Source: Eledone cirrhosa
Lineage: Eukaryota
Reading direction: 5' to 3'
Length of the DNA stretch: 64,000 nucleotides
Assembly: GCA_964016885.1 (NCBI GenBank)
Contig: OZ024744.1
Location: 53,940,001 to 54,004,000, forward strand
Made by a program: the position numbers and the translations under genes. Below are positions 1,257 through 55,665 of the stretch, in pieces (the stretch's first letter is position 1; the number at the start of each line of letters is the position of its first letter). The notes beneath the pieces were generated by a model, which saw only the letters and a list, made by a program, of their open reading frames with translations, was not told where the DNA came from and did no database searches.

Positions 1257-1533
1257 AATAATAATAATAATCATAATAATAATGCTTTTTTTATTAACCA
1301 CAAGGGTTTACATAAAGTAGACATTAAGGACAGTACAGGACAATACAGGAGAGTACAAATGGGCATTTCTGCATGTAAAAACTAAACAAAAACAGGATGT
1401 AACAAAAAATAACAATGAAAGATTCCCCAATAGGGGGAGACTTCCGAGGGACATTTGTGGAGAAAGGCCATTAAAAGACCACAGTGACCCTGACCACCAG
1501 GACAAGTGCCTCTCCCAGTTTTCCACCTTTAAT

Positions 1534-4500
1534 TTACAGGCACATACTCAGAGTAGACCCATTCACTCGAGGCATACTTGCTTCTCTGACCCATCTTTCA
1601 ACAAAATGCTGGGAAGAGAGCACTTCCCTCTCTACCCTGATTTTCCTTTTCAAATGAAATTTCAAAAAGTTAATCAGGGCATCACCGAAGAGATAAGTGC
1701 TCGTCTTCAGCCCTTTCAAACGTGTCCACCACACTATCTCTTTCGCCATGGCCACCAGGCAGATAAAAACTGCCTGCCCTTCCTGGCTAAAGGAAGAGGG
1801 CGTGGCAATCCTCACGATGGACTCAGCTGATAGCTGGATCCGTCCTACACGTGACAGCAGGTGTTCGACATAAACCCACAAGTCAGCAATACTCGGACAC
1901 TGGACGAGTGCATGCAGGACGGTTTCGTGGCCCTGCGCGCATCTCGGACACGCCCGGCTGACAGCACCTCCATGCCTGTAGAGTTTATCCCGAACTGGCA
2001 AAGCTCCTCGGTAGCACTGCCAGGCCAGGGATTTCTGGAAGTTGTCCATAGGCCCCGGCCCGAAAGTCCTCCCGAAGAGATTGGCTGGTTGATTTTCGTC
2101 GACGCCTAGATTTTATCCAAGTACGTCGTCGCTCTTCCCCTCCACTAATCCTCTATAGAACGCCAAGGTGGAGTTTCCACCGATCACATTGCCCGATTGG
2201 TCGAGGGCTGTGAGCGCCTGAAGACATTCCAATCTCCAAGTGCTACCTCTCGGTCTTCGCTTGACCCAGGACTGCAGCTCCGTCAAGGAGACGAGCTGGG
2301 GAAAGACGTGTCTAGCAAACGGCGACCACACCTGATCACCGTCGAGGAAGAGGTGGAGATGTCGTAGCCTGAGCGCGTGTCTGCGCATCATCAGCCACGG
2401 CATGCCCAGCCCTCCACGTAGCGGGTGTTGTCAGCAGATGGACCGCCTGACCATCGGAGCGCGTCCCTTCCACAAAAAGCGAAAGAGCAAACGCTCCAGC
2501 GCAGTCAGGCGGGGCTTAGGACAAGGTACGACGGTCAGGCGGTAGTAGACTAAGGACGCGATGTACGCGTTAGCGACCTCCGATCGACCTTTCAGGGATA
2601 GCTTTCCTCTCCGCCCATTTCTGGGTGAGAGAAGCCACCCTGTTCGTCACCTCGTCCCAGTTTTTGTCCGTCTGGAGGTCCGGACCGAACCAGACCCCTA
2701 GCAATTTAAACGGTCCGTCCGTCCAGCGCCCGACGACGCTGTTGGACGGCATGGACCTGCCTCTCCAGGTCACGAGCTGCAGGCCCACTGACTTTTACTG
2801 GTTGATCATTGCTCCTGTCACCGATTCGTATTCTCTTAGTGTAGTGCCGGTCGCATCGATGTGTTTGGCGTTCGACACCACTACGGTGACATCGTCCGCA
2901 TATGCTGACACGGACCTTCCGTATTCTAGTTCGCGTGGGACCACACTCAACGTCTCCAGTTTGTGTAGTAATGGCTCGAGAGTCAATACGTACAAGAGGG
3001 ACGAGAGGGGACATCCTTGGCGGACCGAGCGCATGATGTTGAACGGTTCCGAAAGGTGACCGTTCACTCTCACCACAGAGCAGATGTCGCTGTGCATGGC
3101 AGCGATCCAGCCTCAGAAGACGGGCCTAAAGCCAGCCGCCTTCAGGACTGTGGCTAGGTAACGACCCTATCGAAAGCTTTCGACTGATTTAAATTGATCA
3201 AGGACCCACCCGTGCCAGGTTCCCTAGCTACCCTCACTACGATGTATCGCATGAGGTGGAGGTTGTCGGGGATGGATCTGTCGGGAATGGCGCATGTCTG
3301 CGCCTCTCCCACCAGACCACCAACGACAAGCGCCAACCTCTTTGCTAGCACCTTGGCCAAAATCTTGAACCCTGTGTTTAGCAGAGTTATGGGCCTGAAA
3401 TTATCTATGTTATCCCCCTTGTTCGGATCCTTTCTCAGCAGTGCCACCGCTCCTCGGCTCACAGAGCTAGGAATTCTCCCGTTCTGTTGCCAGTTGCAGT
3501 AGACGTCCGCCAAGAGGCCTCCGAACAAGTCTGGCATCTGTACTTAACGTTCATATGGTAGACCATCCAAACCAGGCGATTTACCCCTTGTGCAGCCAGT
3601 CATTGCCTCCCGTACTTCAGCGGCTGTTATCGGCTTTTCGCAATACTCCGCCTCAGTGGCCGAGAGCGGCGGCAGTCCCTCGAGGTAGACACTAAAGTCC
3701 ATCCCTCGAGCTGGCTCGCCGCTGCCCCCGAACAGCTGTGCGAAGTGTCGCTGAAAAGCTTCACACATTTGCCCGGGATCGTGTAGCATGCGCCCGTCGT
3801 GGTCCACCAAAGACCGGATCGTGACTTTGTTGCCACGACGCGCCTCTGCCACTCGAGCCCATTGAACGGCTTTCGTCCCCTCGTGTCTGAGAGCACGCAC
3901 CCTAGCTCTGACAACGTAGCCTTCGTGCTTTGCATTGAAGAATTGGTCAAGGGCCAATTTCGACGCAAATACGTCGGTCGCTATGCCTTTGCTAAGCGCC
4001 TCTTCTAATTTTCTAACTAGTTCTCCATTTGCTCTATTTTTCTCTATTGCTAAAGTCTTACTAAACCTAATGGACTCTATTCTATTCGCTCTTTTCAGAA
4101 CAAACCACCACTTGTTGTTGACGATGGCCTCCGTCAACGCCCGCTTAACTAGTTCGCTAATCCGGTCTCTGTAGGCCTTGCGCGCTGGTAAGGACGCGTT
4201 TAGCTTCCAGTAGCCGGGTCCTCGTCTATGAAGCCTATCTAACTCAAGCACACAGATCACGAATTTGTGGTCCGTGTAGTTGAATATCTTGAATTGTGGA
4301 CAGCCTATGCTAGACCTATCTATTTCCCTACAAAATACTCTATCTAGATATGATCTGGATGACCCTATGCGGTTTGTCCAATCCACATTGGCACATTCGG
4401 GAAATCCAATCGGTACCTGTCAGACATTTCAAAACGCCTGAGCAGGTTGGTGAGGCTCTTGCACCCTACTCCCCTATCCGCTGATCCCTCACAGTCCCAG

Positions 4501-4927
4501 CGTGCATCTAAGATCCCGTTCCAGTCACCCACTAACACTAAAGAGCGGGACGTTCCAAGAAAGGTCTCCAGACGCCGGAAGAAATCAGGATGCCCTGCTC
4601 CTGTCGGGGCATAGACGGCCACTAGCTTGAAAACTTGCCCGTCTCCACTGGTCACGTCTAGCACCACCAACTTACCTTCTGGGTCCAGGAAGATGACCTG
4701 TATCGCGAGATCCAAACCTCTCCTCCCCCCGATCCAGGACCGCAAGGAGATGCGTACACATCGTAGCCGCCGAAAGCCGGTGCGAAGGCCCGTGCTTCGG
4801 AGATTCTGGTCTCGCTGATGGCCACTACATCTATGTTTAGTGACCTGAGGTTGTTGAGCAGGTAGCCCAGCTTCCATGACGACCCCAAGCCACGCGCATT
4901 TATGCTGCCTATTCTGAGTGATGTCAT
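1534..4927 (-). pseudogene. E1 ORF2: APE endonuclease, reverse transcriptase, C-terminal CCHC (frameshifted)
   Basis: SINARGL, AISET, VYAP, GDWN, YLDRVF, TDHK; NFRPITLLN, QSKAFDRV, VRQGCPLS, YADD; CPRC..ETVLHALVQC. Confidence 0.9.
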
Positions 4928-4961
4928 GTTGAAATGGAGTGGAAAAGATGGGAAAGATCCC

Positions 4962-6959
4962 TTACCTTACTTCTCGTAGAGGGAGGGTGGTTTGTCGATC
5001 CTTTTCACTGCTTGTGGCCTCCTCCGGAAGGATGTCCTTATAAATCCTCCTGGAGAGTGCTTGTCGGAAGTCTCCGATATCTTTGGGGAATTTTTGTTTT
5101 AGTGTCGTGTACGTTTTCTGTGTGATGAGAGTGATTTGTATGTGTGGAGGTGGTGTGAACTTTTGTGTTGTGTAGTCTTTTTCTGTGATGCTGGTGTTGT
5201 GTTGGATGTAGTGTAATAATTTGTTGTTGTTCAAATTTAATTGTTTCTACTTTTTGGCACAAGGCCAGCAATTATCCCAGTGTATTACTGGTACTTTATT
5301 TTATCGACCCCGTATTCAAATTTAATGCTGTGTAGTGTGTATCGTTTTCGTTGTTTTGTTTTGTTTGCGTTTGTCGTGGGTTTGTTTCTGTTTCGCTTTT
5401 TGGTGACTTTTGTGGTGTTGGTGGTGGTGGTATTGGGGTTAATGATGGTGATGGTGTTGGTGTTTGTGGTGATGGGGTTGGTGAGGCTGGTGTGGATGGT
5501 GGCATATCTGTCCTAACTTTTTTATTTGATAGTTTATTTGTTTCCCTCAGTATTTTGTTTTCCTGGGGGAGGGAAGAGAATTTTTTTCTTTTTTGGTTTC
5601 TTTTTTCTTTTTTCCAGATACCGTATCCCACTCCTCGTCGTCACAATCTGTCTCCAGTTGTGATAGGCTGGGGAGTGGAAAATCTTCTACAGGCGTTGGT
5701 TTTGGTTGTGGCGTGGTGGATGGTGTAGGCGCTGGTGCTAGTTCTGGCGCGTTGGGTGGTGGTGGTGTTGGTTTTGCTACTGTTGCTGGGGTTGTTGCTG
5801 TTACAGTTGCTTCTGTTGTTGCTGCTAAAGTTGTTGCTACCATCTCTGCTGCTGGTGGTGTTGATGGTTGAATCACTGGGGTGGGTAATAGAGGTGGCCT
5901 CAACCTTTTAGCCTGAGGGCAGAAAGCCCTTAGGTGGATTCCTTCACCACAATCGACACACCTAGGCCTTCTGCCCTCGACAATTACGGTGGGGTGGCTG
6001 CCGTCAGTGAGGTCTATTACCTCTGGGATCTCCTCAATGCTTTTATGGTCCGCTTGGATCATGAGCTCCATCCCAGATGCGAACCAGTTCTCCTGCTTTT
6101 CTGTCGCTATTTCAATTATCTTGGTGTTGGCCTCGATGCCGGCGAGAACGGCAGCCATTAGCCAGGGAATCTTGATGGTCGGTGGAACATGGATCACCCT
6201 GATCTTTACAAGTCTCTGGCCACAATAGCTTGGAACGAGTGTGAAGTCGTCACTTCTTAATTGGGCCATGGAGTGTTCTCTAGCGTCCTGTGGTGTTTCA
6301 AAGAACACATCCACGGTTCCATATTTCTGCCCATGTCTGATGTGGGTTTTTTTTGCCTACACAGCATTTTGGATTTGGGACTCGGATGCCCGTTCCACTC
6401 GGCGGGATTTTATGTTAACCGTCCGATAAGACACGGTGCATAGGCGCCGATGCTCCATTTTATTAGGTGGGGGGGGGGGGCGGACCCTGTACCCATCTTT
6501 CTTTACTATCTTTTTGGCTTCTTCTAATTCCTCCCGAGTTACCTGGAATGCTTCGCACTGTTTTGCTACTCTGGCAAAATTCAGGGTGGTTTTTTTAATT
6601 TCATTGTTGCTGTTGTTGTTATGGTTAATTTTAGTTTCAGTTGTGGTATTGGTGACGTCAGTGGTGTTCGGTGTAGAAGAGTTCATTTTGGTTGAATTGA
6701 TTTCGATATCACGAGTTAATTTATTTTTTTCTTTTGTTTCTGTTGTCGCTGTGGTGGTGGTGGGTGTGGCGGCTTTAACACCTGCAGTCATTGGTAATGG
6801 CGGGAAATGAATGTCTGTCTGAGACAAATTTAAAATATTGCTACTGCTTATATTTTTAGTGTTGGCAAACGTAGTAATATTTACAATGGTGGTGTCGGTG
6901 TGAGGTGTTAGTTTGTGAGGAAGGCTCTCAGCTATTGGGTTCAGCTGTGAGTCGGCCAT
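4962..6959 (-). pseudogene. E1 ORF1: gag-like protein with CCHC knuckle and Pro/Thr/Asn-rich linkers (frameshifted, SINE-interrupted)
   Basis: ORFs 6357-6959, 5547-6314 (CVDCGEGIHLRAFC), 5296-5631 and 4962-5234. Confidence 0.8.
5242..5314 (-). mobile_element. 5'-truncated SINE inserted in E1 ORF1 with a 12-bp TSD
   Basis: Matches the 3' part of the SINE at 27697-27872. TTCAAATTTAAT at 5230-5241 and 5315-5326; single copy of this 12-mer in sibling E8 (54029-54040). Confidence 0.88.
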
Positions 6960-7175
6960 GATTTTTCAAAGAAATTTTTGTTTGTTTGATAATTATAAAA
7001 AGTTTAAATATTGGGCTCAAGGCCCAATCTTTTTGAGTGTCCTTTTCAGAAATCAATGTATGTGCACTTATATACAGTTAACAATAAAAATTTTCCATAA
7101 ATAGCAATTTTAAACAACTGAAAATAACAAACCTTTGCGGAGCTCACGATAATACGATTTACTACGTAGGTCGCC

Positions 7176-7249
<74 letters not shown>
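7176..7249. repeat. (AAT)n microsatellite at element junction
   Basis: Directly visible. Confidence 0.98.
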
Positions 7250-7457
7250 GGAAAGGGACCATAACCAACTGGACGAAAGAATTGAATAGAACTGTTATGC
7301 AATGTTACCTTAAGAGTAACCCCAAGGAAAAAGGCTATAGGAAACGGATGCATAACATCTGGAACGAGATTGGTCTATTTAAATAAGATGAACAAAAATA
7401 GGCCGGGCAGGCTCGGGTAATAAGAAATAATGAGTGGATAAACGAGCTGGAACTGGA
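7250..7457 (+). mobile_element. ~210-bp decayed fragment of the N-terminal region of Dong family D2
   Basis: Aligns by eye with 62386-62592 (NWTKELNRTVMQCYL...ELEL), with stop codons. Confidence 0.8.
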
Positions 7458-7738
7458 CAAGTCCCCCACCCCCACATTTTCAAACGTCTATGTTTTATTT
7501 TCCTGTTTATTTGATATAATAAATTCTTTTTAAGCTTATTTTTTTTATATCTGAACTTGATTTGAATATATAAAATTTAATTATCGTAAAACTGTACTTA
7601 TGTGATAGGGTCCGGGAAAGGCACTATAAGCAATGTATGCTCCTTTAAGAATCAACAAATGTTGGTTTGTCCCCCTCACATTTTTAAGGCAAACGAGGCC
7701 CCTATTATTAAGTATTTGTATTAAAGACTTACCCCAGA

Positions 7739-7740
<2 letters not shown>

Positions 7741-7826
<86 letters not shown>

Positions 7827-7827
7827 A
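7741..7827. repeat. (TA)n(GT)n compound microsatellite
   Basis: Directly visible. Confidence 0.97.
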
Positions 7828-8464
7828 TTTTATTTCATTTCAGGAAAAAAAGATTCCTAATTTCTCATGTAAATGGATTATCCTGTAATGAATCAGTCGG
7901 CTGGTTAATGATTGACACCGATAGAGAAACCTGTTCTTTCAATACACGTGGTAGCGACCCAAACATATTTTACTCTAACTTGTCAACACGGACACAATGG
8001 ATTAACGGTAAGTAGTCAACATTAAAGATCATTTGTAAAGATAGCAAATATTTCAACTGAATTTATTAGCAATATTAAACTTTGGAGTACCACATTGAAA
8101 ACATAGCTCATGATATTAAAATAATTTTGATAATAATCAATTTATAGGAGGAATGTAATAATACAATTAACTATTTCATTATTAAGATGATGTTTGGAGT
8201 ATAACTTAATAAAGGTTCTTGTATATGGCGCAATGTTTATTGCATTAATTGCAATCAGAGTAGCATACAATACATACATACATGAAGATCGTCTGCTACA
8301 TAAAAAGTTTGATAATTTATTGCACTTTATATCTGTTTCTTCCTGGCATGAGATCTCAAATGGCTTTTGAGTCCTGAAAGCCTGTGAAATACCTGTCTTC
8401 AAATAATACAATATTTCATTTCGTTCTTGTTTCCACTTTGTGTTTACTTATTGTGTATGTTCAG

Positions 8465-9175
8465 ATGTCACTTCAATCCACCACTTGAGCTGCAAATTTT
8501 CTGACAAACATAACACTGGAACTGATTCTTTGCAATGGAGTTTGAATAGTCAACTTGGACTTTACCATCGTGTGCTCCTTGGTGTGACTTCAAGCCAGCA
8601 CTCAAAAGACATACCTTAAGGTGCAGAGAGTATTTAACAACCAATACTGGATAAGATCTATCATTATTTCTGTTGATCTCATTCTTCCACACTTTTCTTT
8701 TCAGTTCTACATGTTTTGCCCTCTCCATTTCAAATGTTTTAACTCGACTCCAAATGACATCTCTCCACCAGGCCTCTCTATCTACTACATATGATTCAAG
8801 ATTTTTCTAGGATATGTTGAAGCATTTTAAGTTCACTTTTAGAGAGTCTCTGTATCTCTTCCTTGGCTTACTATTTATCCTTTTGCCCAGTTTGAGTTCG
8901 CCATAAAATATTTTCTTGTGGATACGTCCATCACCCATACGAATCATGTGATCTGTCTATCTTAACTGATTCCTAATAAGCATAGATTTAGTAGATGTAA
9001 CTATTGTCCAAGCAAGAATCTCAGCGAATATGTTCCAGCTTATTCTGAATATATGCTGAAGGCATTTTTGGTGAAACTGCTCCAACATTTTAACATGCTG
9101 TGTGTGCGACGTCTATGTTTTGGATGAATAATCTAGTACCGAGAATACAAGTGAGACGTATACAGCAATATTAGT
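8465..9175 (-). mobile_element. Old degenerate RTE-clade 3' fragment
   Basis: Minus-strand remnants KKIFYGELKLGKR, KPRKRYRDSLK, SAGLKSH and CYVCQKICSSSGGLK resemble the C-terminus of the 10212-13757 ORF. Confidence 0.72.
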
Positions 9176-9239
9176 CTCCAATCCAAATACATGCACACAT
9201 ACACACATACATACATGCATACATACATAATACATACAT

Positions 9240-9847
9240 GGCGGCTGCCAACTCGTTTTCGAGTACGGCCACCACTTTATATCCATGTAGGAGAACCCCT
9301 ACCAATGCGCTGAACGAATGTGACTTTTTAGTCCAGCCAGCGACTTGAAAACTCTGGTACAAACACTACACTTGTGACAATTATTGACACATAGTGCTGG
9401 GCCCATGGTACCATGTGACGACAAGTGCATAGAGATCTCCAGATATAAAGCAATGCCTGTGCTGTGAAGCTTTTATAGTGAGCAAAGGCACTGCACAAAG
9501 CCAGTCCCACTCTCTTAACCAAGATGATATTTACCAAAAAGAAGAACAAGTCAACATCATTGGATACCATCAGGGTTGCAGGTGTTATATCAGAGTTTTC
9601 CTTCTCCTAGAATTCTGCCTTGACAAAGGCTAAGGGGTCATCTCTCCCTGTGATTTTGGATGGCTATTGACTCTTAAGAGCCCCTTTGCCTTTTGACAGG
9701 TTTTGTTTTTAGTCCTGCAGGATGTCCAAAGCCACCCTCCTCACCAAGAAACCTTGGTGGGGTTGCCAGTTTAGTCGCCAACAACCCGACCATGAGACAG
9801 GTTGTAATGGGATACATGTTACCAGTAGCACCAACTGGTGACCTGAC
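9240..9847 (-). mobile_element. Non-autonomous RTE-derived element (copy 1) flanked by (TACA)n
   Basis: Contains an RTE-type 5'-UTR motif (TAGCCTT..AGGCA..TCTAGGAGAAGGAAAACTCTGA), ends in a CTCG-AAAA-CGAG stem plus (ATGT)n tail, and has no coding capacity. Second copy at 15308-15914. Confidence 0.7.
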
Positions 9848-9929
9848 ATACATACATACATACATACATACATACATACATACATACATAATGGCTGCCC
9901 CCTCGTTATCGAGTATGGCCATTGCACGA

Positions 9930-9997
9930 GAATAAAAAAATAATAATAATAATTATAAATAAATAAAAATAAAATAAAAAATAAAATAAAAAAAGAA

Positions 9998-10049
<52 letters not shown>

Positions 10050-10200
10050 ACACACTCACACACACACACACTCACACACACATACATTAATAACAATAAT
10101 AATAACAACAATAATAATAACGACAACAACAATAATAATATACATATACATATATATATACACACACACGCACACAGATAAGCATATCTACACACACACA
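9930..10200. repeat. Compound microsatellite (AAT/AAAAT/TA/CA/AAC)
   Basis: Directly visible. Confidence 0.95.
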
Positions 10201-10211
10201 CACGATAGCAA

Positions 10212-13200: not shown

Positions 13201-13757
13201 TTCAAAGCATGGTAAAAGGACACCTTTTCCTCATCGACAGAACTCATAGTTGGAGCATACACACTCACCAGGGTAGCATATCTTCCCTTGTCCAGCGGAA
13301 CTCTCATGGACATAAGACGCTCACTAATCCCTACTGGGAATTCTTCTAATTTGTTCACAAGCACAGTCTTAACAGCAAATCCTACCCCAGCCTCTCTTCT
13401 GGTTCCTTCATCTCTTCCTTTCCAGAAGAATGTATATTCTCCACAAAATTCCGTAAGATGACCATCTCCAGCTAGCCTCGTCTCAGATAAAGCCACGATG
13501 TAAAGATCGTAACGTCGAAGCTCCTTTGCAACAAGAGCGGTCCTTCGTTCAGGACGCCCCAAGGAATCCCTGTCAAGCAGCGTCCGTACGTTTCCGCAGC
13601 CAAGACTAAATGCCTTGTTTGGCTCTATTACAATGGCACGATGACGAGCGGGCCCAGGCTGTGATAACCTGGGGCCCCTGCCCTTATTGCCAATGATCTT
13701 TTTTGTTTCAGAACCTAAATTGCTTATTATCTCTTTTATATTGTTCTGGAACATCAT
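10212..13757 (-). CDS. RTE-clade polyprotein: APE endonuclease, RT and three C2H2-like fingers; uninterrupted frame but YADD reads YADN
   Basis: NVRTLLD, ALSETR, VYAPT, GDFNA, DHRLV; NYRGISLLS, FVDLTKAFDTV, GVKQG, YADN, YLGS, YACETW, LRWSGH. The true start is probably not the first ATG. Confidence 0.88.
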   Translation of the reverse strand: MMFQNNIKEIISNLGSETKKIIGNKGRGPRLSQPGPARHRAIVIEPNKAFSLGCGNVRTLLDRDSLGRPERRTALVAKELRRYDLYIVALSETRLAGDGHLTEFCGEYTFFWKGRDEGTRREAGVGFAVKTVLVNKLEEFPVGISERLMSMRVPLDKGRYATLVSVYAPTMSSVDEEKVSFYHALKGVLRNIPQADKVIVLGDFNAKVGRDFNTWNVIGRHGVGKCNSNGMLLLQMCEELDLCVTNTMFQQKNKFKTTWMHPASKEWHLLNYVLVRIRDRQDVQCVRVLRGAECWMDHRLVRAKVKLITKRKIRAPGVALPKRLNAARLKDKNVKRTLEEEMQAADLGEDWPTLKKTVYDVGRRVLGLVQRKHQDWFDENDVHIEDLLADKRRALSRYLTANPQERNTLHEELRVVKSRVRRSLSQMKDQWSSEKAGEIQTASDSNNTKLLYSLLREVYGPSSSLVTPLRSKDGKELLRDSQGILRRWREHFDDLLNQPSVVSEDFLNLIPESPVKVALVEPPTLVEVAVAISKLNSGRSPGMDGIHAELLQYGGERLLQHLHSLFGRIWASESVPEDWRDAVMVVLYKGKGNRNDCGNYRGISLLSVVGKVLCRVLLDRLLTHIADCVLPESQSGFPAGRGTTDIIFSARQLQEKCMEQSLDLYQVFVDLTKAFDTVNRDALWKVLQKLGCPDKFLALVRSFHDDMKAWVNVGGNMSEPISVKNGVKQGDIPAPTLFAMYFAMVFCMAFRNCEHGVYIRYRTSGSIFNIRRFAAKTKVFTSIIRDLLYADNCDLVAHTESEMQHILNAFADACTALGLTVSLKKTVVMYQPAPGKQYTEPNIYVYGKRLGVVDQFVYLGSTVNRYSNLDSEISLRIRKASDAFGKLERRLWGRRDICRRTKVKVYRACVLSCLLYACETWVTYRHHLKQLERFHQMCLRRIHGIHWRDHISDVEILESSMCDSIEALVLKQRLRWSGHLARMKDSRIPKQLFYGELVKGKRPPHKPKKRYKDSLKASLKDTNISADTWENVAADRNKWRKTVYEGKVAFEASRIAYEKVKRDVRKGIAVALPDGEGPPMVLTCSVCARLCLSKAGLESHLRSHKVRPVVDYQAAVGDATHHVCQTCGREGKSAGGLKRHAKVDELQPQPTIPSECFGCRLCARHFRSLAGLKSYIRSQRC

Positions 13758-14384: not shown

Positions 14385-14525
14385 GAGTCACGGCCCTCCA
14401 CGCTCTAAGCTCAAATCCTGCCGAGGTCAACCTTGCCCTTCATCCCCACGGAGTCAACAAAAGAGAGTACCAGTGATGCGCTGGGCCAGTCGCTGGATCC
14501 GTGCCAAAAGCAGAAAAATTATTAA
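14385..14525 (+). mobile_element. Diverged tRNA-derived SINE copy
   Basis: B-box-like GCTCAAATCC, core GCCCTTCATCC..GTCAACAAAAGAGAGTACCAG and tail GTGCCAAAAGCAGAAAAATTATT, similar to 27697-27872. Confidence 0.7.
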
Positions 14526-44047: not shown

Positions 44048-44254
44048 TTATTTTTAAATAATTTTTTTTTTTTTAAACGTAACATGTTCAAATATTTAGG
44101 CCAAAAGGCCCAAATATTATACTTTGCCCTTCACAGGCCAAAGTCTAAGGGTTTATATCCCTTACACAACAGAAAAATATTTAACAACAAATAATTTTAA
44201 CAGGCAAATTTAGTGACTTACTGAGAGCGAGCAAAAAGGACGTCCGAACAGATC

Positions 44255-44285
<31 letters not shown>

Positions 44286-44534
44286 CTTTCTTTATTAACC
44301 ACAATGGTTTACATAAAGTAGACATTAAGGACAGTGCAGGAAAGTACAGTACGGTACAAGTGGGCATTTCTGTGTGTAAAAAACAAAAACAGAGGATGTA
44401 ACAAAAAAATAACAATGAAAAATTCCCAATAGGGGGGAGACTTCGGAGGGATATTTGTGGAGAAAGCCCAGTAAAAGGACACAGTGACCCTGACCACCAA
44501 GGCAAGTGCCCTCTCCCAGTTTTCCACCTTTAAT

Positions 44535-47500
44535 TTACAGATATATATTAAGCGTAGGCCCATTCACTCGGGCCATTCTTGCTTCTCTCACCCATCTTTC
44601 AACAAAATGCTGGGAAGAGAGCACTTCCCTCTCTACTCTGATTTTCCTTTTCAAATGAAATTTCAAAAAGTCAATCAGGGCATCACCGAAGAGGTAAGTG
44701 CTCGTCTTCAGCCCTTTCAAACGTGTCCACCATACTATCTCTTTCGCCATGGCCACCGGACAGATGAAAACTGCCTGCCCTTCCCGGCTAAAGGAGGAGG
44801 GCGGGGAAATCCTCACGATGGGCTCAGATGATAGCCGGATCCATCCTAAATGCGACAGCAGGTGTTCGACATAAACCCACAAGTCAGCAATTTACGGACA
44901 CTGGACGAGTGCGTGCAGGACGGTTTCGTCGCCCTGCGCGCATCTCGGACATGCCCGGCTGACGGCACCTCCATGCCTGTAGAGTTTATCCCGAACTGGC
45001 AAGTTTCCTCGGTAGCACTGCCAGGCCAGAGATTTCTGGAAGTTGTCCATAGGCCCTGGCCCGAAAGTTCTTCCGAAGAGATTGGCTAGTTGATTTTCGT
45101 CGACGCCTAGAGTTTCCCCAAGTACGTCGTCGCTCTTCCCCTCCACTAATCCTCTATAGAACGCCGAGGTGGAGTTTCCACCGATCACATTGCCCGATTG
45201 GTCGAGGGCTGTGAGCGCCTGAAGACATTCCAGTCTCCAGGTGCTCCCTCTCGGTCTTCGCTTGACTCAGGACTGCAGCTCCGTCAAGGAAACGAGCTGG
45301 GGAAATACGTGTCTAGCAAACGACGACAACACCTGATCACCGTCAAGGAAGAGGTGGTAGCCTGAGCGCGTGCCTGCGCATCATCAGCCACGGCATATCC
45401 AGCCCTCCACCTAGCGGGTGTTGACAACAGATGGACCGCCTGACCATCGGAGCGCGTCCCTTCCACAAAAAGCGAAAGAGCAAACGCTCCAGCGCAGTCA
45501 GGCGGGGCTTAGGACAAGGTACGACGGTCAGGCGGTAGCAGATGACAGACGCGATGTACGCGTTAGCCACCTCCGCTCGACCTTTCAGGGATAGCTTCCT
45601 CTCCGCCCATTTCTGGGTTAGAGAAGCCACCCTACTCGTCACCTCGTCCAGGTTTTTGTCCGTCTGCAGGTCCGGACCGAACCAGAACCCTAGCAATTTA
45701 ACCGGTCCGTCCTTCCAGCGTCCGACGACGCTGTTGGACGGCATGGACCTGCCTCTCCAGGTGCCGAGCTGCAGGCCCACTGACCTTTCCTGGTTGATCA
45801 TTGCTCCTGTCACCTCTTCGTATTCTCTTAGTGTAGTGACGATCGCCTCGATGTGTTTGGCGTTCGACACCACTACGGTGACATCGTCCGCAGATTCTGA
45901 CACGGATCTTCCGCATCCTAGTTCGCGCGGGGCGCCCCTCCACGTCTCCAGTTTGTGCAGTAATGGCTCGAGAGTCAATACGTACAAGAGGGACGAGAGG
46001 GGACATCCTTGGCGGACCGAGCGCATGATGTTGAACGGTTCCGAAAGGTGACCGTTCACTCTCACTACAGAGCAGATGTCGCTGTGCATGGCAGCGATCC
46101 AACCTCTGAAGACGGGCCGAAAACCAGCCGCCCTCAGGACTGCCGCTAGGTAACGATGGTCGACCCTATCGAAAGCTTTCAACTGATCTAAATTGATCAA
46201 TGACCCACCCGTGCCAGGTTCCCTAGCTACCCTCTCTACGATGTATCGCATGAGGTGGAGGTTGTCGAGGATGGATCTGTCGGGAATGGCGCACGTCTGC
46301 GCCTCTCCCACCAGACAACTAACGACAAGCGCCAACCTCTTTGCTAGCAACTTGGCCAAAATCTTGAACTCTGTGTTTAGTAGAGTTATGGGCCGGAAAT
46401 TATCTATGTTATCCCCCTTGTTCGGATCCTTTCTCAGCAGTGCCACCGCTCCTCGGCTAACAGAACTGGGAATTCTCCCGTTCTGTTGCCAGTTGCAGTA
46501 GACGTCCGCCAAGAGGCCTCCGAACAAGTCTGGCATCTGTACGTAAAGTTCATAAGGCAGACCATCCAAACCAGGCGATTTACCCCTTGTGCAGCCAGTC
46601 ATTGCCTCCCTTTCTTCAGCGGCTGTTATCGGCTTTTCGCAACACTCCGCCTCAGTGGCCGAGCGCCGCGGCAGTCCGTCGAGGTAGACACTAAAGTCCA
46701 TCCCTCGACCTAAGCCCACCGCTGCCCCCGAACAGCTGAGCGAAGTGTCGCTGAAAAGCTTCACACATTTTCCCGGGATCGAGTAGCATGCGCCCGTCGT
46801 GGTCCACCAAAGACCGGATCGTGGCTTTGTTGCCACGACGTGCCTCCGCCACTCGGGCCCATTGAACCCAGCCTTCGTGCTTTGCATTGAAGAATTGGTC
46901 AAGGGCCAATTCCGCCGCAAGCCCGTCGGTCGCAATGCCTTTGCTAAGCTCCTCGTCTAATTTTCTAACTAGTTCTCTCTCTGTTCTATTTTTCTCTGTT
47001 GCTATAGCCTTACTAAACCTAATCGATTCTATTCTAATCGCTCTTTTCAGAGCAAACCACCACTTGCTGTTGACGATGGCCCCCGTCAACGCCCGCTTAG
47101 CTAGTTCGCTAATGCGGTCTCTGTAGGCCTTGCGCGCTGGTAAGGACGCGTTTAGCTTCCAGTAGCCGGGTCCTCGTCTATGAAGCCGATCTAAGTCAAG
47201 CACACAGATCACGAATTTGTGGTCCGTGTAGATGACTATCTTGAATTGTGGACAGCCTATGCTAGACCTATCTATTTCCCTACAAAATACTCTATCTAGA
47301 TATGATATAAGTCCACATTGGCACATTCGGGAAATCCAATCGGTACCTGTCAGACAGTTCAAAACGCCTGAGCAGGTTGGTGAGGCTCTTGCACCCTCCA
47401 CCCCTATCCGCTAATCCCACACAGTCCCAGCGTGCATCTAAGATCCTATTCCAGTCGCCCACTAACACTAAAGAGCGGAACGTTCCAAGAAAGGTCTCCA

Positions 47501-47876
47501 GACGCCGGAAGAAATCAGGCCGCCCTGCTCCTGTCGGGGCATATACGGCCACTAGCCTGAAAGCTTGCCCGTCTCCGCTGGTCACGTCCAGCACCACCAA
47601 CTTACCCTCTGGGTCCAGGAAGATGGCCCGTATGTCGAAATCCAAACCTCTCCGAAAAAGCACAGCAAATCCTCCCCCCGATCCGGGACGGCTGGGAGAT
47701 GCGTACACATCGTAGCCGCCGAAGATCGGTGCGAAGGCCCGTGCTTCGGAGTTTCTGGTCTCGCTGATGGCCACTACATCTATGTTTAGTGACCTGAGGT
47801 CGTTGAGCAGGTGACCCTGCTTCCTTGACGACCCCAAGCCACGCGCATTTATGCTGCCTATTCTGAGTGAGGTCAT
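44535..47876 (-). pseudogene. E7 ORF2 (APE, RT, CCHC), frameshifted
   Basis: 530-aa RT segment 45343-46935 with SADD in place of YADD; APE in 47292-47876. Confidence 0.88.
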
Positions 47877-47911
47877 GTTTAAAATAGAGTAGAAAAGATG
47901 GGAAAGACCAC

Positions 47912-50022
47912 TTACCGTACTTTTCGTAGAGGAGGGATGGTTTTTACATCCCTTTTCACTTGATCGTCTGTTGAAGGGACGGTTGAACCGTCCCTTCGGC
48001 TGGTCGTCGACTCTTCTATGAGTATGTCCGAATATACTCTTCGATTGAGAGTCCCTCCTAGGTCTCTGAAATCACCACTGCGTTGGGGAATTTCGTTTTA
48101 ATGTTTGTGTATTGTTTCTGTGCTATTTTTAGCAGTCATATGTTAGTTGGCGTTTTGATTGGTGCTGGTATTATGTAGTCGTGTTGTGAAATGTCTGTGT
48201 GTTCAATTATGTAAGTCATTAGTTTCTTGTTGTGTGTATTTATTGCCGTGCATTTGTTTTTCTGGGGGTGGGGTGTGGTTCTGCTATTTTCTTGTCGTTG
48301 TTGCTGGGTGTGTGAGTTTTGTTGTTGTGTTTGCGATGTTGGTGCTTGTGGTGGTGGTGTTGAAGGTGCTGTTGTTGTTGGCGGTGGGGTTGTCGCCGGT
48401 GGTGATGGTGGTGCTAGTGTGGGTGGTGATGGTGTTGGTGGTGTTGCTGCTGTTAGTCTATTCGCTGTAGCCTTTACCCTTTTTTCATTTCTTTCCTCAC
48501 TTTTCGAAGGCGACGATGCGCTGCTTCTGTGTTTGTGCTTTCTTACGACCTTTTGCCATCTCTCTCCCACCTCACACTCCATATCTGATTCTGTGAGGTC
48601 GGTGAGGGGTACCAGCTCCACTCTTTCACTTGTTGTTGTTGGTGATGTTTGCACTGGAGTCTCTGTTGCAGCTGCATTTGGTATTGCTGTTGTTGTTGTT
48701 AATACTTCCACTGCTGCTGCTGTTTTTGATTTCCGTGGCGTGGGTATGGGTGCCACGGACCTATCGTTCCTGGTTGCCGCTTGTCCTGTTGCTGGTAGCC
48801 GTGGAGCCGGTTTCGGAAGGAGGGGGGTTTTCTCCTTTCTCAGGGTCTTCTCGTTGCAGAAGGCCCTGAGGTGGGTCTTCGATCCACAGCGAAAGCATTT
48901 CGGGCGTTTGCCCTCAACACTTATGGGCAGTTGAGTGCCGTTATCAAAGTCTATCACATCCGGGATAGCTTCGATGCACTCCTGGTTGGTTTGGATTAAC
49001 ATCTCAATGGAGGTGCCGACCCAATCTTCTCTTACTTTTTTCTGTACTTGCAGTACAGTTGTTTTGTCCTCGATTCCGACGAGGACAGACGCGGCCAGCC
49101 AAGAAGGGGCCATCCCGGGGGGGGGGGGACATGGGTCAGTTTGACCCTCACAATTTTTGCCCGCAGTAGGAGTGCACCAACACCATTTCCTCGCTCCTTA
49201 GGGTCACTAAGGATTGAGCCTTTGCCTCCTGGGGTTTGGCATAAAGTACGTCTACGGTGGCATATTTCTTGCCTCGGGTGATGTGCGTTTTCCGCTGCCA
49301 CACAGACCCCAAAGCTTTTTGTATTTGAGCCTCTGTAGCTCTTTCAACCCTACGGGATTTTGTACTTACTGTACGGTACGTGACCGTACAGTGCTGTTGG
49401 GTTTCGAAAAAATTTTCCGCTGCCTTGCAGATTGCTCGGTGTCCGGTTTTGTCACCATCTTCTTCGCTTCCTCTAATTCCTCATTTGTTATGTGGATGGT
49501 TTCCAGGTTCTTCGCGATACCTGCAAACGAGATTGGTTTTTCTTTGCTGCTGTTGTTGTTGTTGTCGTCAGAGCTGCTGTTACTTTTGTTGTTGCTGCAG
49601 GTACTACGACTACTGCCGCCGCCGCTGTTGCTGTGGTTGTTGTTGTTGTTGCTGCTGCTAATGCTGTTGTTGTTTATGCTGCTGCTGATGCTGTTGCGGC
49701 TGCTACTGTTGTTTTCATTGTCACTGTTGCTGTTCTTATTACGGCTGCTACTGCTATTATTCCTGACGTCAGACGAATGAAATGGGTTTTCGTATTTCCC
49801 GCACACCTGTTTCGTCGTTGTCGTCGTCGTCGTGGAGAAATCTTGCACGCTTTGCACGAGATTTTTCTTTTCTGTCGTCGCTTGCGATAGAGAAGGGAGG
49901 GAGAGAGACACATTTAGAGAAGGGGGGGAGAGAGACAATCTTCTCTCTGCTGTAGTGACGATTGAGGAAGGAGAAGATGGAATGAGTGGGAGTGACCTAT
50001 GAAAATTCTTTTTCGTAGCCAT
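47912..50022 (-). pseudogene. E7 ORF1 with CCHC knuckle
   Basis: CFRCGSKTHLRAFC in ORF 48136-49113; N-terminal ORF 49366-50022. Confidence 0.78.
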
Positions 50023-50275
50023 GTTGTTTTTTTATTTAAAATAAATATTGGGCACAAAACCCCAATAGGCAGTTATTTAACCCCGAAGGGCCAAATAACG
50101 GGCAGAAAGACCCCTCTCACGGGGAGGAGGCTGTTTTGTCTACAAGTTGGTTAAAGTATTAAACAATTTACAATTGTTATAGCGGTCAACATTTACAATA
50201 CCTTACAGAGCCGAGCCTCCGTAAACCATGGCATTCAATAATAATAACAATAATAATAATAATAATAATAATAAT

Positions 50276-50345
50276 TGTTTCTACTTTTGGCACAATGCCA
50301 GCAATTACCTAATGCATTACTGGTATTTTATTCTATCGACCCCGG
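50276..50345 (-). mobile_element. 5'-truncated SINE in the (AAT)n spacer between E7 and E8
   Basis: Matches the 3' ~70 bp of the SINE at 27697-27872. Confidence 0.82.
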
Positions 50346-50597
50346 AATAATAAGAATACTTTCTTTATTAACTACAAGGGTTTACATAAAGTAGACATTA
50401 AGGACAATAAAGGACGGTACAAATGGGCATTTCTGCGTGTAAAAAACAAAAACAGTAACAACAATTATCAATAAAAAATGAAAAGTTTCCCAATACGTGG
50501 GAGACTTCCGAGGACCATCGTGGAGAAAGCCCATTAAAAAGCCACGGTGACCCTAACCATCAGGGCAATTGTCCTCTCCCAGTTTTCCACCTTCAAT

Positions 50598-53500
50598 TTA
50601 CAGGCATATACTCAGAGTATGTCCACTCACTCGGCCCATTCTTGACTCTCTCACCCATCTTTCAAGAAAAAGCTGGGAAGAGAGCACTTCCCTCTCTACC
50701 CTAATTTTCCTTTTCAAATGAAATTGGAATAATTTAATCAGGGCATCACCGAAAAGGTAAGTGCTCGTCTTCAGCCCTTTCAGACGTGTTCACCATACTA
50801 TCTCTTTCGCCATGTCCACCAGACAGATAAAAACTGCCTGCCCTTCCCGGCTAAAGGAAGCGGGCGCGGAAGTCCTCACGACGGACTCAGCTGATAGTCG
50901 GATCCGTTCCACACACGACAGCAGGTGTTCGACAAAAAACCACAAGTCAGCAATGCTCGGACACTGGACGAGTACGTGCAGGACGGTTTCATCGCCCTGC
51001 GCGCATCTCGGACATGCCTGGTTGACGGCACCTCCATGCCTGTAGAGTGTATCCCGAACTGGCAAAGCTCCTCGGTAGCACTCCCAGGCCAGGGATTTCT
51101 GGAAGTTGTCCATAGGCCCCGGCCCGAAAGTGCTTCCAAAGAGATTGGCTAGTTGAGTTTCGATACACCTAGAGTTTCCCCAAGTACGTCGTCGCTCTTC
51201 CCCTCCACTAATCCTCTATAGAAAGCCAAGGTGGAGTTTCCACCCATCACATTGCCTGATTGGTCGAGGGCTGTGAGCGCCTGAAGACATTCCAGTCTCC
51301 AAGCGCTCCCTCTCGGTCTTCGCTTGACCCAGGACTGCAGCTCCGTCAACGAGATGAGCTGGGTAAAGACGCGTCTAGCAAACGGCGACCACACCTGATC
51401 ACCGTCGAGGATATGTGATGATATCGTAGCCTGAGAGGGTACTGCGCATCATTAGTCATGGCATGTCCAGCCCTCCAAATAGCGGGTGTTGACAGCAGAT
51501 GGACCGCCTGACCATTGGAGCGCGTCCCTTCCACAAAAAGCGAAAGAGCAAACGCTCCAGTGCAATCAGGCGAGGCTTAGGACAAGACACGACGGTCAGG
51601 CGGTAGTAGATGACGGACGCGATGTACGCGTTAGCTACCTCTGCTCCACCTTTCAGGGATAGCTTCCTCTCCGCCCATTTCTGGGTGAGAGAAGCCACCC
51701 TGCTCGTCACCTCGTCCCAGTTTTTGTCCGTCTGAAGGTCCGGACCGGACCAGACCCCTAACAATTTAACCGGTCCGTCCATCCAGCGCCCGACGACGCT
51801 GTTGGACGGCATGGACCTGCCTCTCTAGGTGCCGTGCTGAAGGCACACCAACTTTTCCTGGTTGATCATTGCTCCTGTCACCGCTTCGTATTCTCTTAGT
51901 GTAGTGCCGATCGCCTCGATGTGTTTGGCGTTCGACACCACTACGGTGATATCGTCCGCATATGCTGACACGGATCTTCCGCATCCTAGTTCGCGCGGGA
52001 CTCCCCTCAACGTCTCCAGTTTGTGCAGTAACGGCTCGAGAGTCAATACGTGCAAGAGGGACGAGAGGGGACATCCTTGGCGGACCGAGCGCATGATGTT
52101 GAACGGTTCCGACAGGTGACACAGAGGAGATGTCGCTGTGGACGGCAGGAATCCAGCTTCTGAAGACAGGCCCAAAGCCAGCCTCCCTCAGGACTGCCGC
52201 TAGGTAACGATGGTCGACCCTATCGAAAGCTTTCGACTGATCTAAATTGATCAAGGATCCACTCGTGCCAGGTTCCCTAGCTACCCTCTCTACGATGTAT
52301 CGCATGAGGTGGAAGTTGTCGTGGATGGATCTGTCGGGAATGGCGGATGTCTGCGCCGCTCCCGCCATACCACCAACGACAAGCGCCAATCTCTTTGCTA
52401 GCACCTTGGCCAAAATCTTGAACTCTGTGTTTAATAGAGTTATGGGCCTGAAATTATCTATGTTATCCCCCTTGTTCGGATCCTTTCTCAGCAGCGCCAC
52501 AGCTCCTCGGCTCACAGAGCTGGGAATTCTCCCGTTCTGTTGCCAGTTGCAGTAGACGTCCGCCAAGAGGCCTTCGAACAAGTCTGGCATCTGTACGTAA
52601 AATTCATAGGGCAGACCATCCAAACCAGGCGATTTACCCCTTGTGCAGCCAGTCATTTCCCCCCGTACTTCAGCGGCTGTTATCGGCTTTCCGCAACACT
52701 CAGCCTCAGTGGCTGAGAGCCGCGGCAGTCCGTCGAGGTAGACACTAAAGTCCATCCCTCGATCCGGCCCGCCGCTGCCCCCGAACAGCTGTCGAAGTGT
52801 CGCGGAAAGGCTTCGCACATTTTCCCGGGATCGAGTAGCATGCGCCCGTCGTGGTCCACCAAAGACCGGATCGTGGCTTTGTTGCCACGACGCGCCTCCG
52901 CCACTCGGGCCCATTGAACGGCTTTCGTCCCTCGCGTCTGAGAGCACGCACCCTAGCTATGACAACGCAGCTTTCGTGCTTTGCATTGAAGAATTGGTCA
53001 AGGGCCAATACGTCGGTCGCGATGCCTTTGCTAAGAGCCTCGTCTAATTTTCTAACTAATTCTCCCTCTGCTCTATTTTTCTCTATTGCTAAAGCCTTAC
53101 TAAACCTAATGGACTCTATCCTAATTGCTCTTCTCAGAGCAAACCACCACTTGTTGTTGACGATGGCCCCCGTCAATGCCCGCTTAACTAGTTCGCTAAT
53201 CCGGTCTCTGTAGTCCTTACGCGCTAGTAAGGAGGCGTTTAGCTTCCAGTAGCCGGGTCCTCGTCTATGAAGCCTATCTAAATCAAGCACACAGATCACG
53301 AATTCGTGGTCTGTGTAGCTGACTATCTTGAATTATGGACAGCCTATGCTAGACCTATCTATTTCCCTACAAAATACTCTATCTAGATATGATCTGGATG
53401 ACCCTATGTGATTTGTCCAAGTCCACATTGGCACATTCGGGAAATCCAATCAGTACCTCTCAGACACTTCAAAACACCTGAGCAGGTTGGTGAGGCTCTT

Positions 53501-53723
53501 GCACCCTCCTCCCCTATCCCCTAATTCCACACAGTCCCAGCGTGCATCTAAGATCCCGTTCCAACCGCAAACTAACAATAAAGAGCGGGACGTTCCAAGA
53601 AAGGTCTCCAGACGCCGGAAGAAATCAGGCCGCCCTGCTCCTGTCGGGTAATAAACGGCTACTAGCCTGAAGCTTGCCCGTCTCCGCTGGTCACGTCGAG
53701 CATCACCAACTTAGTGAGGTCAT
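50598..53723 (-). pseudogene. E8 ORF2, degenerate
   Basis: LDQSKAFDRVDH, VRQGCPLS, YADD, CPRC..ETVLH..VQC. Confidence 0.87.
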
Positions 53724-53757
53724 GTTGAAATGGAGTGGAAAAGATGGGAAAGACCAC

Positions 53758-55665
53758 TTACCTTACTTCTCGTAGAGGAAGGATGGTTTGTCCATCCTTT
53801 TCACTGCTTGTGGCCTCCTCCGGAAGGATGTCCTTATAAATCCTCCTGGAGAGTGCTTGTCGGAAGTCTCCGATATCTTTGGGGAATTTTTGTTTTAGTG
53901 TCGTGTACGTTTTCTGTGTGATGTGAGTGATTTGTATGTGTGGAGGTGGTGTGAACTTTTGAGTTGTTGTGTAGTCTTTTTCAGTGATGCTGGTGTTGTG
54001 TATGATGTAGTGTAACAATTGGTTGTTGTTCAAATTTAATGCTCTGTAGTGTGAATCGTTTCGGTCGTTTTGTTTTGTTTGCGTTTGTTGTGGGTTTGTT
54101 TCTGTTTCGCTTTTTGGTGACTTTTGTGGTGTTGGTGATGGTGGTGTTGGGGTTAATGATGGTGATGGGGTTGGTAATGCTGGTGTGGATGGTGGCATAT
54201 CTCTCCTAACTTTTTTGTTTGATAGTTTATTTGTTTCCCTCTGTATTTTGTTTTTGGAGGGAGAAGGAAGAAAATTTTGTCTTTTTTGGTTCTTTTTTTC
54301 TTTTTTCCTGATACCGTTTCCCACTCCTCGTCGTCACAATCTGTCTCCAGTTGTGATAGGCCGGGGAGTGAAAATCCTCCACAGGCGTTAGTTTTGGTTG
54401 TGGCGTGGTGGATGGTATAGGCGCTGGTGCTAGTTCTGGCGCGTTGGGTGCTGGTGGTGTTGGTTTTGCTACTGTTGCTGGGTTTGTTGCTGCTACAATT
54501 GTTGCTGCCATCTCTGCTGCTGGAGGTGTTGATGGTTGAGTCACTGGGATGGGTAAGATAGGTGGCCTCATCCTCTTAGCCTGAGGGCAGAAAGCCCTTA
54601 GGTGGGTTCCTTCACCACAAACGACACACCTAGGCCTTCTGCTTTCGACGATTACGGTGAAGTGCCTGCCGTCAGTGAGGTCTATTGCCTCTGGGATCTC
54701 CTCAATGCTTTTATGGTCCGCTTGGATCATGAGCTCCATCCCAGATCCGGACCAGTTCTCCTGCTTTTCTGTCGCTATTTCGATTATCTTGGTGTTGGCC
54801 TCGATGCCGGCGAGAACGGCAGCTATTCGCCAGGGAATTTCGATGGCCGGTGGAACGTGGGTCTCCCTGATCTTTACGAGTCTTTGGCCACAATAGCTTG
54901 GGACGAGTGTGAAGTCGTCACTTCTTAATGGGGCCATGGAGTGTTCTCTAGCGTCCTGTGGTGTTTCAAAGAACACATCGGTTCCATATTTCTGCCTACG
55001 TCTGGTGTGGTTTTTTTTTTGCCCACACATGTCCCAAATCCTTTTAGATTTGTGACTCGGATGCCCGTTCCACTCGGCGCGATTTTATGTTAATTGTTCT
55101 ATAAGACACGGTGCATAGGCGCCGGTGCTCCATTTTATTAGGTGGGGGGGGGGCTGAACCTGTACCCATCTTTCTTTACTATTTTTTTTGGCTTCTAATT
55201 CCTCCTGAGTTACCTGAAATGCTTCGCGCTGTTTTGCTACTCTGGCAAAACTCAGGGTGGATTTATTAATTTCATTGTTGTTGTTATCGTTATTTTTGTT
55301 ATTGTTAATTTTAGTTTCAGTTGTGGTGCTGGCGTCAGTGGTGTTCGGTGTGGAAGAGTTCATTTTGGTTGAATTCACTTCGATAACACGAGTTAATTTA
55401 TTTTTTCTTTTGTTTCTGTTGTCGCGGTGGTGGTGGCGGTGGTGGTTGTCGCGGTGGTGGTGGTAGTGGTGGTGGCGGCTTTAACACATGCAGTCATTGG
55501 TAATGGCGGGAAATGAATGTCTGCCTGAGACAAATTTAAAATATTGCTACTGCTTATATTTTTAGTGTTAGCAAACTAACACCTCACACCCACACCACCA
55601 TTTACAATAGTGGTGTAGTTGTGAGGTGTTAGTTTGTGAGGAAGTAGTGACTCTGAGTCATCCAT
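53758..55665 (-). pseudogene. E8 ORF1, frameshifted
   Basis: CVVCGEGTHLRAFC; ends LPLREVR* as in E1. Confidence 0.78.

Follow-up and report, generated by a model that had tools for sequence, protein, structure and literature searches.

Splice sites in long interspersed nuclear elements (LINEs) and the protection of retroelement RNA by the U1 small nuclear ribonucleoprotein (U1 snRNP) are each known separately. In Arabidopsis EVD, a Ty1/Copia element with long terminal repeats (LTRs) and a single open reading frame (ORF), a spliced RNA lacking an intron of about 300 nucleotides (nt) with a conserved acceptor has been demonstrated, and a U1 site is described as inhibiting premature termination of the unspliced RNA (PMC5580714). 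The same source describes an intron spanning the whole polymerase region for the Gag-only RNA of Drosophila copia and a short intron just after Gag for barley BARE1. In foamy virus, a donor suppresses through U1 the nearby poly(A) site of the 5' LTR, which leads to full-length RNA (PMC3694450). Among LINEs, human L1 carries conserved splice sites that mostly escape use (SpIREs, PMC5860796; SpORF2, PMC2896524), while the Tx1 elements Kibi, Koshi and Tx1-Mar, the last with SINEU, combine two ORFs, an ORF2 encoding endonuclease and reverse transcriptase (RT), microsatellite preference and a target-sharing short interspersed element (SINE) (PMC4494074). The element considered here is a Tx1-like LINE of Eledone cirrhosa, of which eight decayed copies (E1 to E8) lie in a window of 64,000 nt, the whole stretch of DNA analysed (contig OZ024744.1, positions 53,940,001 to 54,004,000 of the forward strand). 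The window is part of a 3.0-Gb assembly (GCA_964016885.1), from which the genome-wide copy counts were also taken. A motif resembling a splice donor is kept at the ORF1 end of 13 lineages of this element, and we read it, with a probability of roughly 0.4, as a mostly unspliced U1-binding site that would guard the bicistronic RNA from early polyadenylation.

The element resembles these systems in part. As in copia-type elements, the first gene ends in a donor, kept in 13 lineages, whereas the acceptor past the polymerase is not conserved; copia and BARE1 need a conserved acceptor, which is found here in family A only and without any spliced retrocopy. Unlike EVD, it is a two-ORF LINE with no conserved acceptor and no spliced retrocopy seen, and what its donor-like site does may correspond to the U1 part of the EVD mechanism. 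The outcome known from foamy virus would be alike, although that system is retroviral, its site lies in the LTR and its donor is also the major splice donor (PMC3694450). Human L1 differs in that its donor lies in the 5' untranslated region (UTR) and splicing is described as removing the 5' UTR or ORF1, not ORF2 (PMC5860796; PMC2896524). The microsatellite targets are (ATT)n, and (ATCT)n for one lineage (F), unlike the (TC)n of Kibi and the (TTC)n of Koshi. In the literature surveyed, whose coverage is incomplete, no LINE, be it of Tx1 type or from octopus, was found reported as keeping a donor where its ORF1 stops.

Seven donor-like sites stand at the ORF1 end in the window, all on the minus strand (positions 4965, 22247, 31483, 36708, 41563, 47915 and 53761; Table 1). 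A sequence-only reading of the window had reported them, and both the exact positions and the letters proved correct. The sites are, with moderate confidence, beyond chance, and the observation as a whole is partly confirmed. The overlap of the ORF1 stop with the donor, claimed for families A and B, is present in phase 2 in E1, E7 and E8 and in phase 1 in E2, E4 and E6; E5 of family C, not listed there, has it in phase 1 as well. The divergent GTAAGG of E1 is indeed there, but its +6 G is a change private to E1, T standing at this place in 28 of 30 family-A copies.

Searches of the whole genome recovered the motif G/GTRRKT, the slash marking the would-be exon end, in 13 lineages of this microsatellite-targeting group. 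Lineage sites were taken as majority letters, and the 15 of 204 ORF2 starts without any lineage signature (truncated, deleted or degraded) were dropped before counting. The letters -1G, +1G, +2T and +6T are constant across all 13 lineages. By comparison, none of the 35 upstream columns of the boundary alignment is invariant, and in the spacer between the ORFs, CAACATG at the ORF2 start apart, the alignment is poor. What is conserved thus forms an island in the register of U1 pairing. The frame of the ORF1 stop has shifted twice with the motif kept, between the A-type and the B/C-type lineages and between the sister lineages F and F2. Where non-coding, +6T is kept in 7 of 7 lineages and +5G in 6 of 7, and +2T is kept in all 6 lineages where it is a glycine wobble position. 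Lineage E has lost +5G, yet its exon side is a perfect CAG.

The expectation without selection was obtained from a neutral simulation in which the ancestral 11 letters evolved at the four-fold rate on a tree of nine lineages, each stop being kept; D, G, H and F2 were left out, there being no ORF2 sequence for them. Identity at four-fold sites is 0.73 between A and B2, 0.53 between A and C1, 0.56 between B2 and C1, 0.53-0.60 between F and the others and 0.48-0.60 among the deep lineages; over about the first 600 codons, the ORF2 protein of F is 63-70% identical to the others. Under these conditions, the probability of G/GT in all nine well-sampled lineages was 0.018, and that of a summed U1 match at least as high as observed was 0.007. 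These values argue moderately for selection on the donor motif, conditional on an ancestor that already bore it. Inside one family, the motif decays at the pace of its flanks, which is to be expected of dead copies.

This conservation does not extend to distant relatives. In a metagenome scan, the 50 of 80 loci that reach near the ORF2 start were examined, and 17 non-redundant elements, with an upstream ORF of at least 300 codons ending no more than 200 nt from ORF2, were scored. All are distant, their best segments being 24-41% identical. Pyrimidine-rich spacers without donors are common among them, and a donor of similar strength at the ORF1 stop occurs in one of the 17, against a background of 1.9% per window. 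The attribution of the motif to all Tx1 families thus holds for one related group, and judged by these elements the donor motif is not a Tx1-wide trait. The single case (L211:2920-2940) has GAC/GTAAGT directly 5' of the ORF1 stop TAA, in the layout of family C, and is compatible with chance.

The sequence-only reading had placed ORF2 inside an intron running from the donor to an acceptor in the 3' UTR, whose removal would leave an mRNA encoding ORF1 alone, with a new and short C-terminal end. The acceptor-like CAGs are present at 1369, 23992, 44370, 50433 and 27954, but they are typical of family A only, and that of E4 is private. A pyrimidine-AG triplet (YAG) follows the U-rich tract in 17 of 17 A-type 3' ends aligned. 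The AG of E4 is missing in all 13 other B-type ends aligned and in the first 100 listed of 296 genome matches to family-B ends, and no AG stands at this place in family C (0 of 12) or lineage F (0 of 3). The acceptor was thus found in A and A2 only, being absent from B, B2, C and F. The frames said to be homologous in E1 and E4 reduce to one, since the E4 peptide has no family basis. A peptide coded by the last 80 nt was also rejected, the AG being absent in B, C and F and the stretch measuring 90 nt in A against 79 in C.

Since LINEs insert DNA copies of their own RNA, spliced RNAs should leave copies bearing the junction. Indeed, spliced human L1 RNAs are described as leaving genomic retrocopies (SpIREs), at about 2% of full-length L1 (PMC5860796). 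The genome-wide probe for the exact donor-to-3' UTR junction, equivalent to the predicted joining of 4966 to 1368, found no copy in A or A2, beside 1,261 exact copies of the unspliced family-A boundary. Other letters follow the family-A exon end in five copies, all local indels or substitutions. At the other side of the supposed intron, 6,740 exact family-A 3' ends have the CAG flank. In the 30 whose upstream letters differ (6,770 ends in all), the cause is a point change, a truncation or a deletion, and ORF1 adjoins none of them. No spliced exon end was found beside 669 unspliced ones in family B (seven one-base deletions), 25 in family C and 218 in lineage F (eight local variants), nor among the three variant matches in lineage E, all local. 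For family A, the 95% upper bound on spliced copies is about 0.24% of boundary-bearing insertions. The exon-end patterns caught every candidate acceptor named and about 9 in 16 arbitrary acceptors; for A2 the search covered the 3' UTR junction only. The test detects only germline RNA that has kept its 3' tail, and an RNA with ORF1 alone would depend on ORF2 protein supplied in trans. With just 80 nt between junction and tail, nearly any insertion of a spliced RNA would retain the junction, and since the tail looks usable in trans, as the SINE described below suggests, spliced RNA with the whole tail should be copied too. Contigs from four runs of unrecorded kind were compared with one copy of family A, in which the donor is at 3906 and the last exon would start at 284; no skip from donor to acceptor was among the 15 joints shown of 1,862. 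As contigs can show presence but not absence, this was not counted as evidence. The interpretation given by the sequence-only reading is supported in part: its long-intron headline is not supported, and what remains is a real conserved site.

The conservation now found fits the second idea of that reading, namely that U1 binding protects the RNA. U1 snRNP would bind the donor-like site at the ORF1 end, mostly without splicing, and the bound U1 would suppress early cleavage and polyadenylation of the full-length two-gene RNA; selection would then keep the motif in every master lineage whatever the ORF1 frame. Because only full-length RNA gives full-length daughter copies, a site raising its yield would be selected. 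AATAAA or ATTAAA occurs in the A-rich ORF1 tail of A, A2 and B, 160-500 nt upstream of the donor, and an RNA ended at these hexamers would lack the ORF1 stop together with the entire ORF2. A number of observations weigh against this reading. Lineage B2 has no common AATAAA or ATTAAA within 1,200 nt upstream (17 copies), and AATAAA was found inside ORF2 in none of the four family-A copies scanned. Positions +2 to +4 are TAA, TAG or TGA in all 13 lineages, so that a translation signal fits part of the pattern; TAA followed by G is a strong stop context. A second GGTAAGT, 310 nt into ORF2 of A and B, is encoded by E-G-K codons, and donor-like motifs therefore do arise from coding. With half the four-fold rate, the simulated probabilities rise to 0.11-0.16 (0.13 for G/GT in all lineages, 0.11 for the summed U1 match), the simulation presupposes the motif in the ancestor, and D, E, G and H branch near A/B and so add little independent tree length. 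The single donor among 17 distant elements is a further point of this kind, as is human L1, where conservation of the donor is attributed to an overlapping RUNX3 site rather than to splicing or U1 (PMC5860796).

Close behind the U1 reading ranks the explanation that the motif was inherited from one ancestor and kept by stop context, tandem stops, an ORF2 reinitiation signal or drift, its likeness to a donor being incidental; we hold this to be a serious possibility, if short of an even chance. All lineages, including F with its 63-70% protein identity, have one common ancestor, a stop triplet always occupies +2 to +4, and CAACATG at the ORF2 start is equally well kept. The ORF2 of L1 and SART1 is described as made by termination-reinitiation (PMC5972666), the spacers of distant relatives are often pyrimidine-rich without donors, no spliced retrocopy was seen, and the simulated probabilities at half rate are 0.11-0.16. 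On the other hand, the four-fold rate gives 0.007-0.018, the +6T, +5G and +2T letters are kept where the code leaves them free, the second stop is not generally kept (+6 to +8 is TGG or TTT in A-type lineages), and the flanks of the motif change freely. A different use of the site, which we consider unlikely, would be the opening of a mini-intron of 28-59 nt in the spacer, whose splicing, perhaps with early polyadenylation as in EVD and BARE1, would give an ORF1-only RNA or an ORF1-ORF2 fusion. If the product lacked the 3' tail, no retrocopy would result, and a pyrimidine tract directly follows the donor in all lineages. An AG likewise lies 28-59 nt past the donor in every lineage, in differing places and frames (in E5 a TAG at 28 nt). 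A YAG directly precedes the ORF2 ATG in F (34 nt), F2 (39), C1 (28), C3 (30-32) and E (49-50), a branch-like TTAAC occurs in F and F2, splicing would fuse the ORFs in frame in A (52 nt) and F2, and CATAAA or TATAAA lies about 60 nt past the donor in A, A2, B and B2. Yet A, A2, B, B2, C2, D, G and H lack an AG ahead of the ATG, in B, C1, E, F and G the first AG does not keep the frame, and the +60 hexamers overlap conserved S/T-I-N codons. Most animal introns are longer than 28-34 nt, the sizes at stake in several lineages. Moreover, a tail-bearing spliced RNA that codes for ORF2 should retrotranspose in cis, and none was found beside the unspliced copies counted above in A, B, F and C, or among the three variants in E.

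Two variants of the spacer idea were set aside: fusion of ORF1 and ORF2 as a general rule, the frames disagreeing between lineages, and production of an ORF2-only RNA with the acceptor in the spacer, since just 5 of 13 lineages have an AG ahead of the ATG (upstream donors were not searched). In F2 (3 copies, L393-L395), the 39-nt spacer runs from GT to AG with a branch-like TTTAAC, and no spliced copy was seen among 8 matches. Least probable, and very improbable, is the joining of the donor to the 3' UTR acceptor with removal of the whole ORF2, as in Drosophila copia, which could concern A and A2 at most. The regular YAG of A-type ends and the 6,740 CAG flanks agree with it, and the retrocopy test could miss the product if cis preference were strict or expression confined to tissues outside the germline. 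Against it stand the absence of the acceptor from B, B2, C and F, the lack of any exact junction, the local nature of the five exon-end variants, the 30 variant 3' ends of which none joins ORF1, and a junction so near a tail apparently usable in trans that nearly every insertion would show it; the SpIREs of human L1 amount to about 2% of full-length L1 (PMC5860796), although most of these move in cis. The U1 reading and the mini-intron could also be joined in an RNA-processing switch at the ORF1/ORF2 boundary, convergent with plant Ty1/Copia: unspliced U1 binding would give full-length RNA, and occasional mini-intron splicing with early polyadenylation would give a tail-less ORF1-only mRNA, setting the ORF1:ORF2 ratio without leaving retrocopies. 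We regard this combination as doubtful.

A hairpin at the 3' terminus, with compensatory changes, accounts for the conservation of the last 80 nt better than a peptide does. The hairpin stands just 5' of AATAAA, and its stems pair AACC with GGTT (51 ends), AGCC with GGCC (17) or GGCC with GGCC (6) among the copies fetched; in lineage F it reads GCC-CCTGT-GGC. Further conserved 3' UTR blocks, CCCCTATTGGGG and TTTACACG, occur in A, B, C and F. A SINE of about 170 nt has the same loop on a compensated stem, and 45,616 exact copies of its 33-nt tail were counted genome-wide. Judging by the common hairpin and target, this SINE is likely the partner of the Tx1-like group, mobilised by the LINE, whose tail thus appears efficiently usable in trans. 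A 3' fragment of the SINE interrupts ORF1 of E1. Lineage F, about 68% identical to A and B in ORF2 protein, ends in (ATCT)n instead of (ATT)n, with ATCT repeats at the 3' end in 3 of 3 copies (L373-L375; G000:C2:4133300, C2:370618005, C1:379177950), and a switch of target between close relatives is likely.

The assignment to the Tx1 clade is very likely, judged by domains, ORF1 and microsatellite ends. A natural open ORF2 of the same family (1,121 aa) matches PF03372 (APE endonuclease), PF00078 (RT) and PF13966 (C-terminal zinc-binding, zf-RVT). ORF1 has no Pfam match above the cut-off, but its translations contain a CCHC knuckle (C-x2-C-x4-H-x4-C), and its Atlas look-alikes are of CCHC/ZCCHC3 type (0.90-0.93, a lead only). 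ATT repeats adjoin 19 of 20 3' ends in the first 3'-end alignment. The clade as described in PMC4494074 fits these ORF2 domains, the ORF1 knuckle and the microsatellite ends. The closest named ORF2 relatives are from Argonauta hians and Octopus sinensis, the best matches being otherwise unnamed or "hypothetical", and proteins of close relatives exist at 38-80% identity. Thirteen recently active L1-Tx1 families are described in Octopus vulgaris, and the repeat library of that study may hold these elements (PMC13282606).

Several further features were noted in the window and elsewhere. E7 represents lineage A2, whose ORF1 is B-like but gives way about 15 codons before its stop to A-like sequence, ORF2 included, and lineage E has a divergent boundary on an A-like ORF2; swapping of ORF1 between lineages seems recurrent. 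Another RT-encoding LINE, with a (TAA)n tail, lies on the plus strand at 2-1283 and 57047-60891. E1 sits antisense at its tail, and the tail of one LINE thus appears to supply the target of the other. A different LINE type at 10212-13829 (minus strand) has an open endonuclease-RT frame of 1,204 codons with C-terminal C2H2-like fingers. A ninth 3' end of B type (hairpin and AATAAA), absent from the sequence-only reading, was found at 16082-16101 (minus strand). At 43.60 and 44.79 Mb of G000:C28 (L051, L052) there are copies that match E4 at 90-95% identity and have a C-type neighbour, which suggests older duplicates of part of the cluster on the same chromosome. An Rfam search of the window gave no match, and the single tRNA call at 42148 was set aside, as it falls inside a low-complexity ORF1.

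Table 1. Features of the Tx1-like LINE in the window and majority donor-like sites of its lineages in the genome (the slash marks the would-be exon end).
Feature	Position	Strand	Remarks
Cluster of eight decayed Tx1-like LINE copies	1257..55930	-	mostly head to tail, ATT repeats between
E1, approximate extent	1257-7180	-	
E2, approximate extent	18720-23887	-	
E3, approximate extent	23888-27670	-	
E4, approximate extent	27870-33200	-	
E5, approximate extent	33225-38200	-	
E6, approximate extent	38310-44250	-	
E7, approximate extent	44285-50230	-	
E8, approximate extent	50340-55880	-	
Donor-like site, E1 (family A)	4960..4968	-	AAG/GTAAGG; ORF1 stop TAA at +2..+4; ORF2 ATG 4927
Donor-like site, E2 (lineage B2)	22242..22250	-	AAG/GTAAGT; ORF1 stop TGA at +6..+8; ORF2 ATG 22207
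Donor-like site, E4 (lineage B)	31478..31486	-	AGG/GTAGGT; ORF1 stop TGA at +6..+8; ORF2 start decayed to ATA, 31443
Donor-like site, E5 (lineage C1)	36703..36711	-	GAG/GTAAGT; ORF1 stop TAA at +6..+8; ORF2 ATG 36671
Donor-like site, E6 (lineage B2)	41558..41566	-	AAG/GTAAGT; ORF1 stop at +6..+8; ORF2 ATG 41523
Donor-like site, E7 (lineage A2)	47910..47918	-	ACG/GTAAGT; ORF1 stop TAA at +2..+4; ORF2 ATG 47876
Donor-like site, E8 (family A)	53756..53764	-	AAG/GTAAGT; ORF1 stop at +2..+4; ORF2 ATG 53723, then internal deletion
Pyrimidine-rich inter-ORF spacer, E1	4928..4959	-	CAAC directly 5' of ORF2 ATG; all lineages laid out alike; frequent in distant Tx1/L1 as well
3' UTR CAG behind U-rich tract	1369..1371	-	family-typical in A only; also 23992, 44370, 50433
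3' UTR CAG, E4	27954..27956	-	private substitution; family has CAA
3' terminal hairpin and AATAAA, E1	1290..1309	-	4-bp stem, loop CTTGT
Hairpin equivalents	23913-23932, 33227-33245, 38336-38355, 44291-44309, 50364-50383	-	
SINE 3' end	27703..27722	-	loop CTTGT in TGGC/GCCA stem, then ATT repeats; another at 50281-50300
SINE, about 170 nt	27703-27870, 50281-50340, about 5242-5314	-	inserts at ATT sites
Lineage A			AAG/GTAAGT; 56 copies examined; ORF1 stop +2..+4
Lineage A2			ACG/GTAAGT; 19 copies; ORF1 stop +2..+4
Lineage H			GAG/GTAAGT; 2 copies; ORF1 stop +2..+4
Lineage G			AAG/GTAAGT; 9 copies; ORF1 stop +2..+4
Lineage D			AAG/GTAGGT; 14 copies; ORF1 stop +2..+4
Lineage E			CAG/GTAATT; 23 copies; ORF1 stop +2..+4
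Lineage F2			GGG/GTAAGT; 3 copies; ORF1 stop +2..+4
Lineage B			AGG/GTAGGT; 25 copies; ORF1 stop +6..+8
Lineage B2			AAG/GTAAGT; 20 copies; ORF1 stop +6..+8
Lineage C1			GAG/GTAAGT; 17 copies; ORF1 stop +6..+8
Lineage C3			GAG/GTAAGT; 4 copies; ORF1 stop +6..+8
Lineage C2			AAG/GTAAGT; 6 copies; ORF1 stop +6..+8
Lineage F			AGG/GTGAGT; 14 copies; ORF1 stop +6..+8

Counting retrocopies offers a way to test splicing claims from the genome alone. For the way in which two-gene LINEs obtain plenty of ORF1 protein, little ORF2 protein and yet sufficient full-length RNA, the main explanation has been reinitiation of translation, in L1 and SART1. If the U1 reading is true, a U1 site kept through changes of the ORF1 frame would point to control at the level of RNA processing in a LINE, a form of control which, in the literature surveyed, is known for LTR elements.

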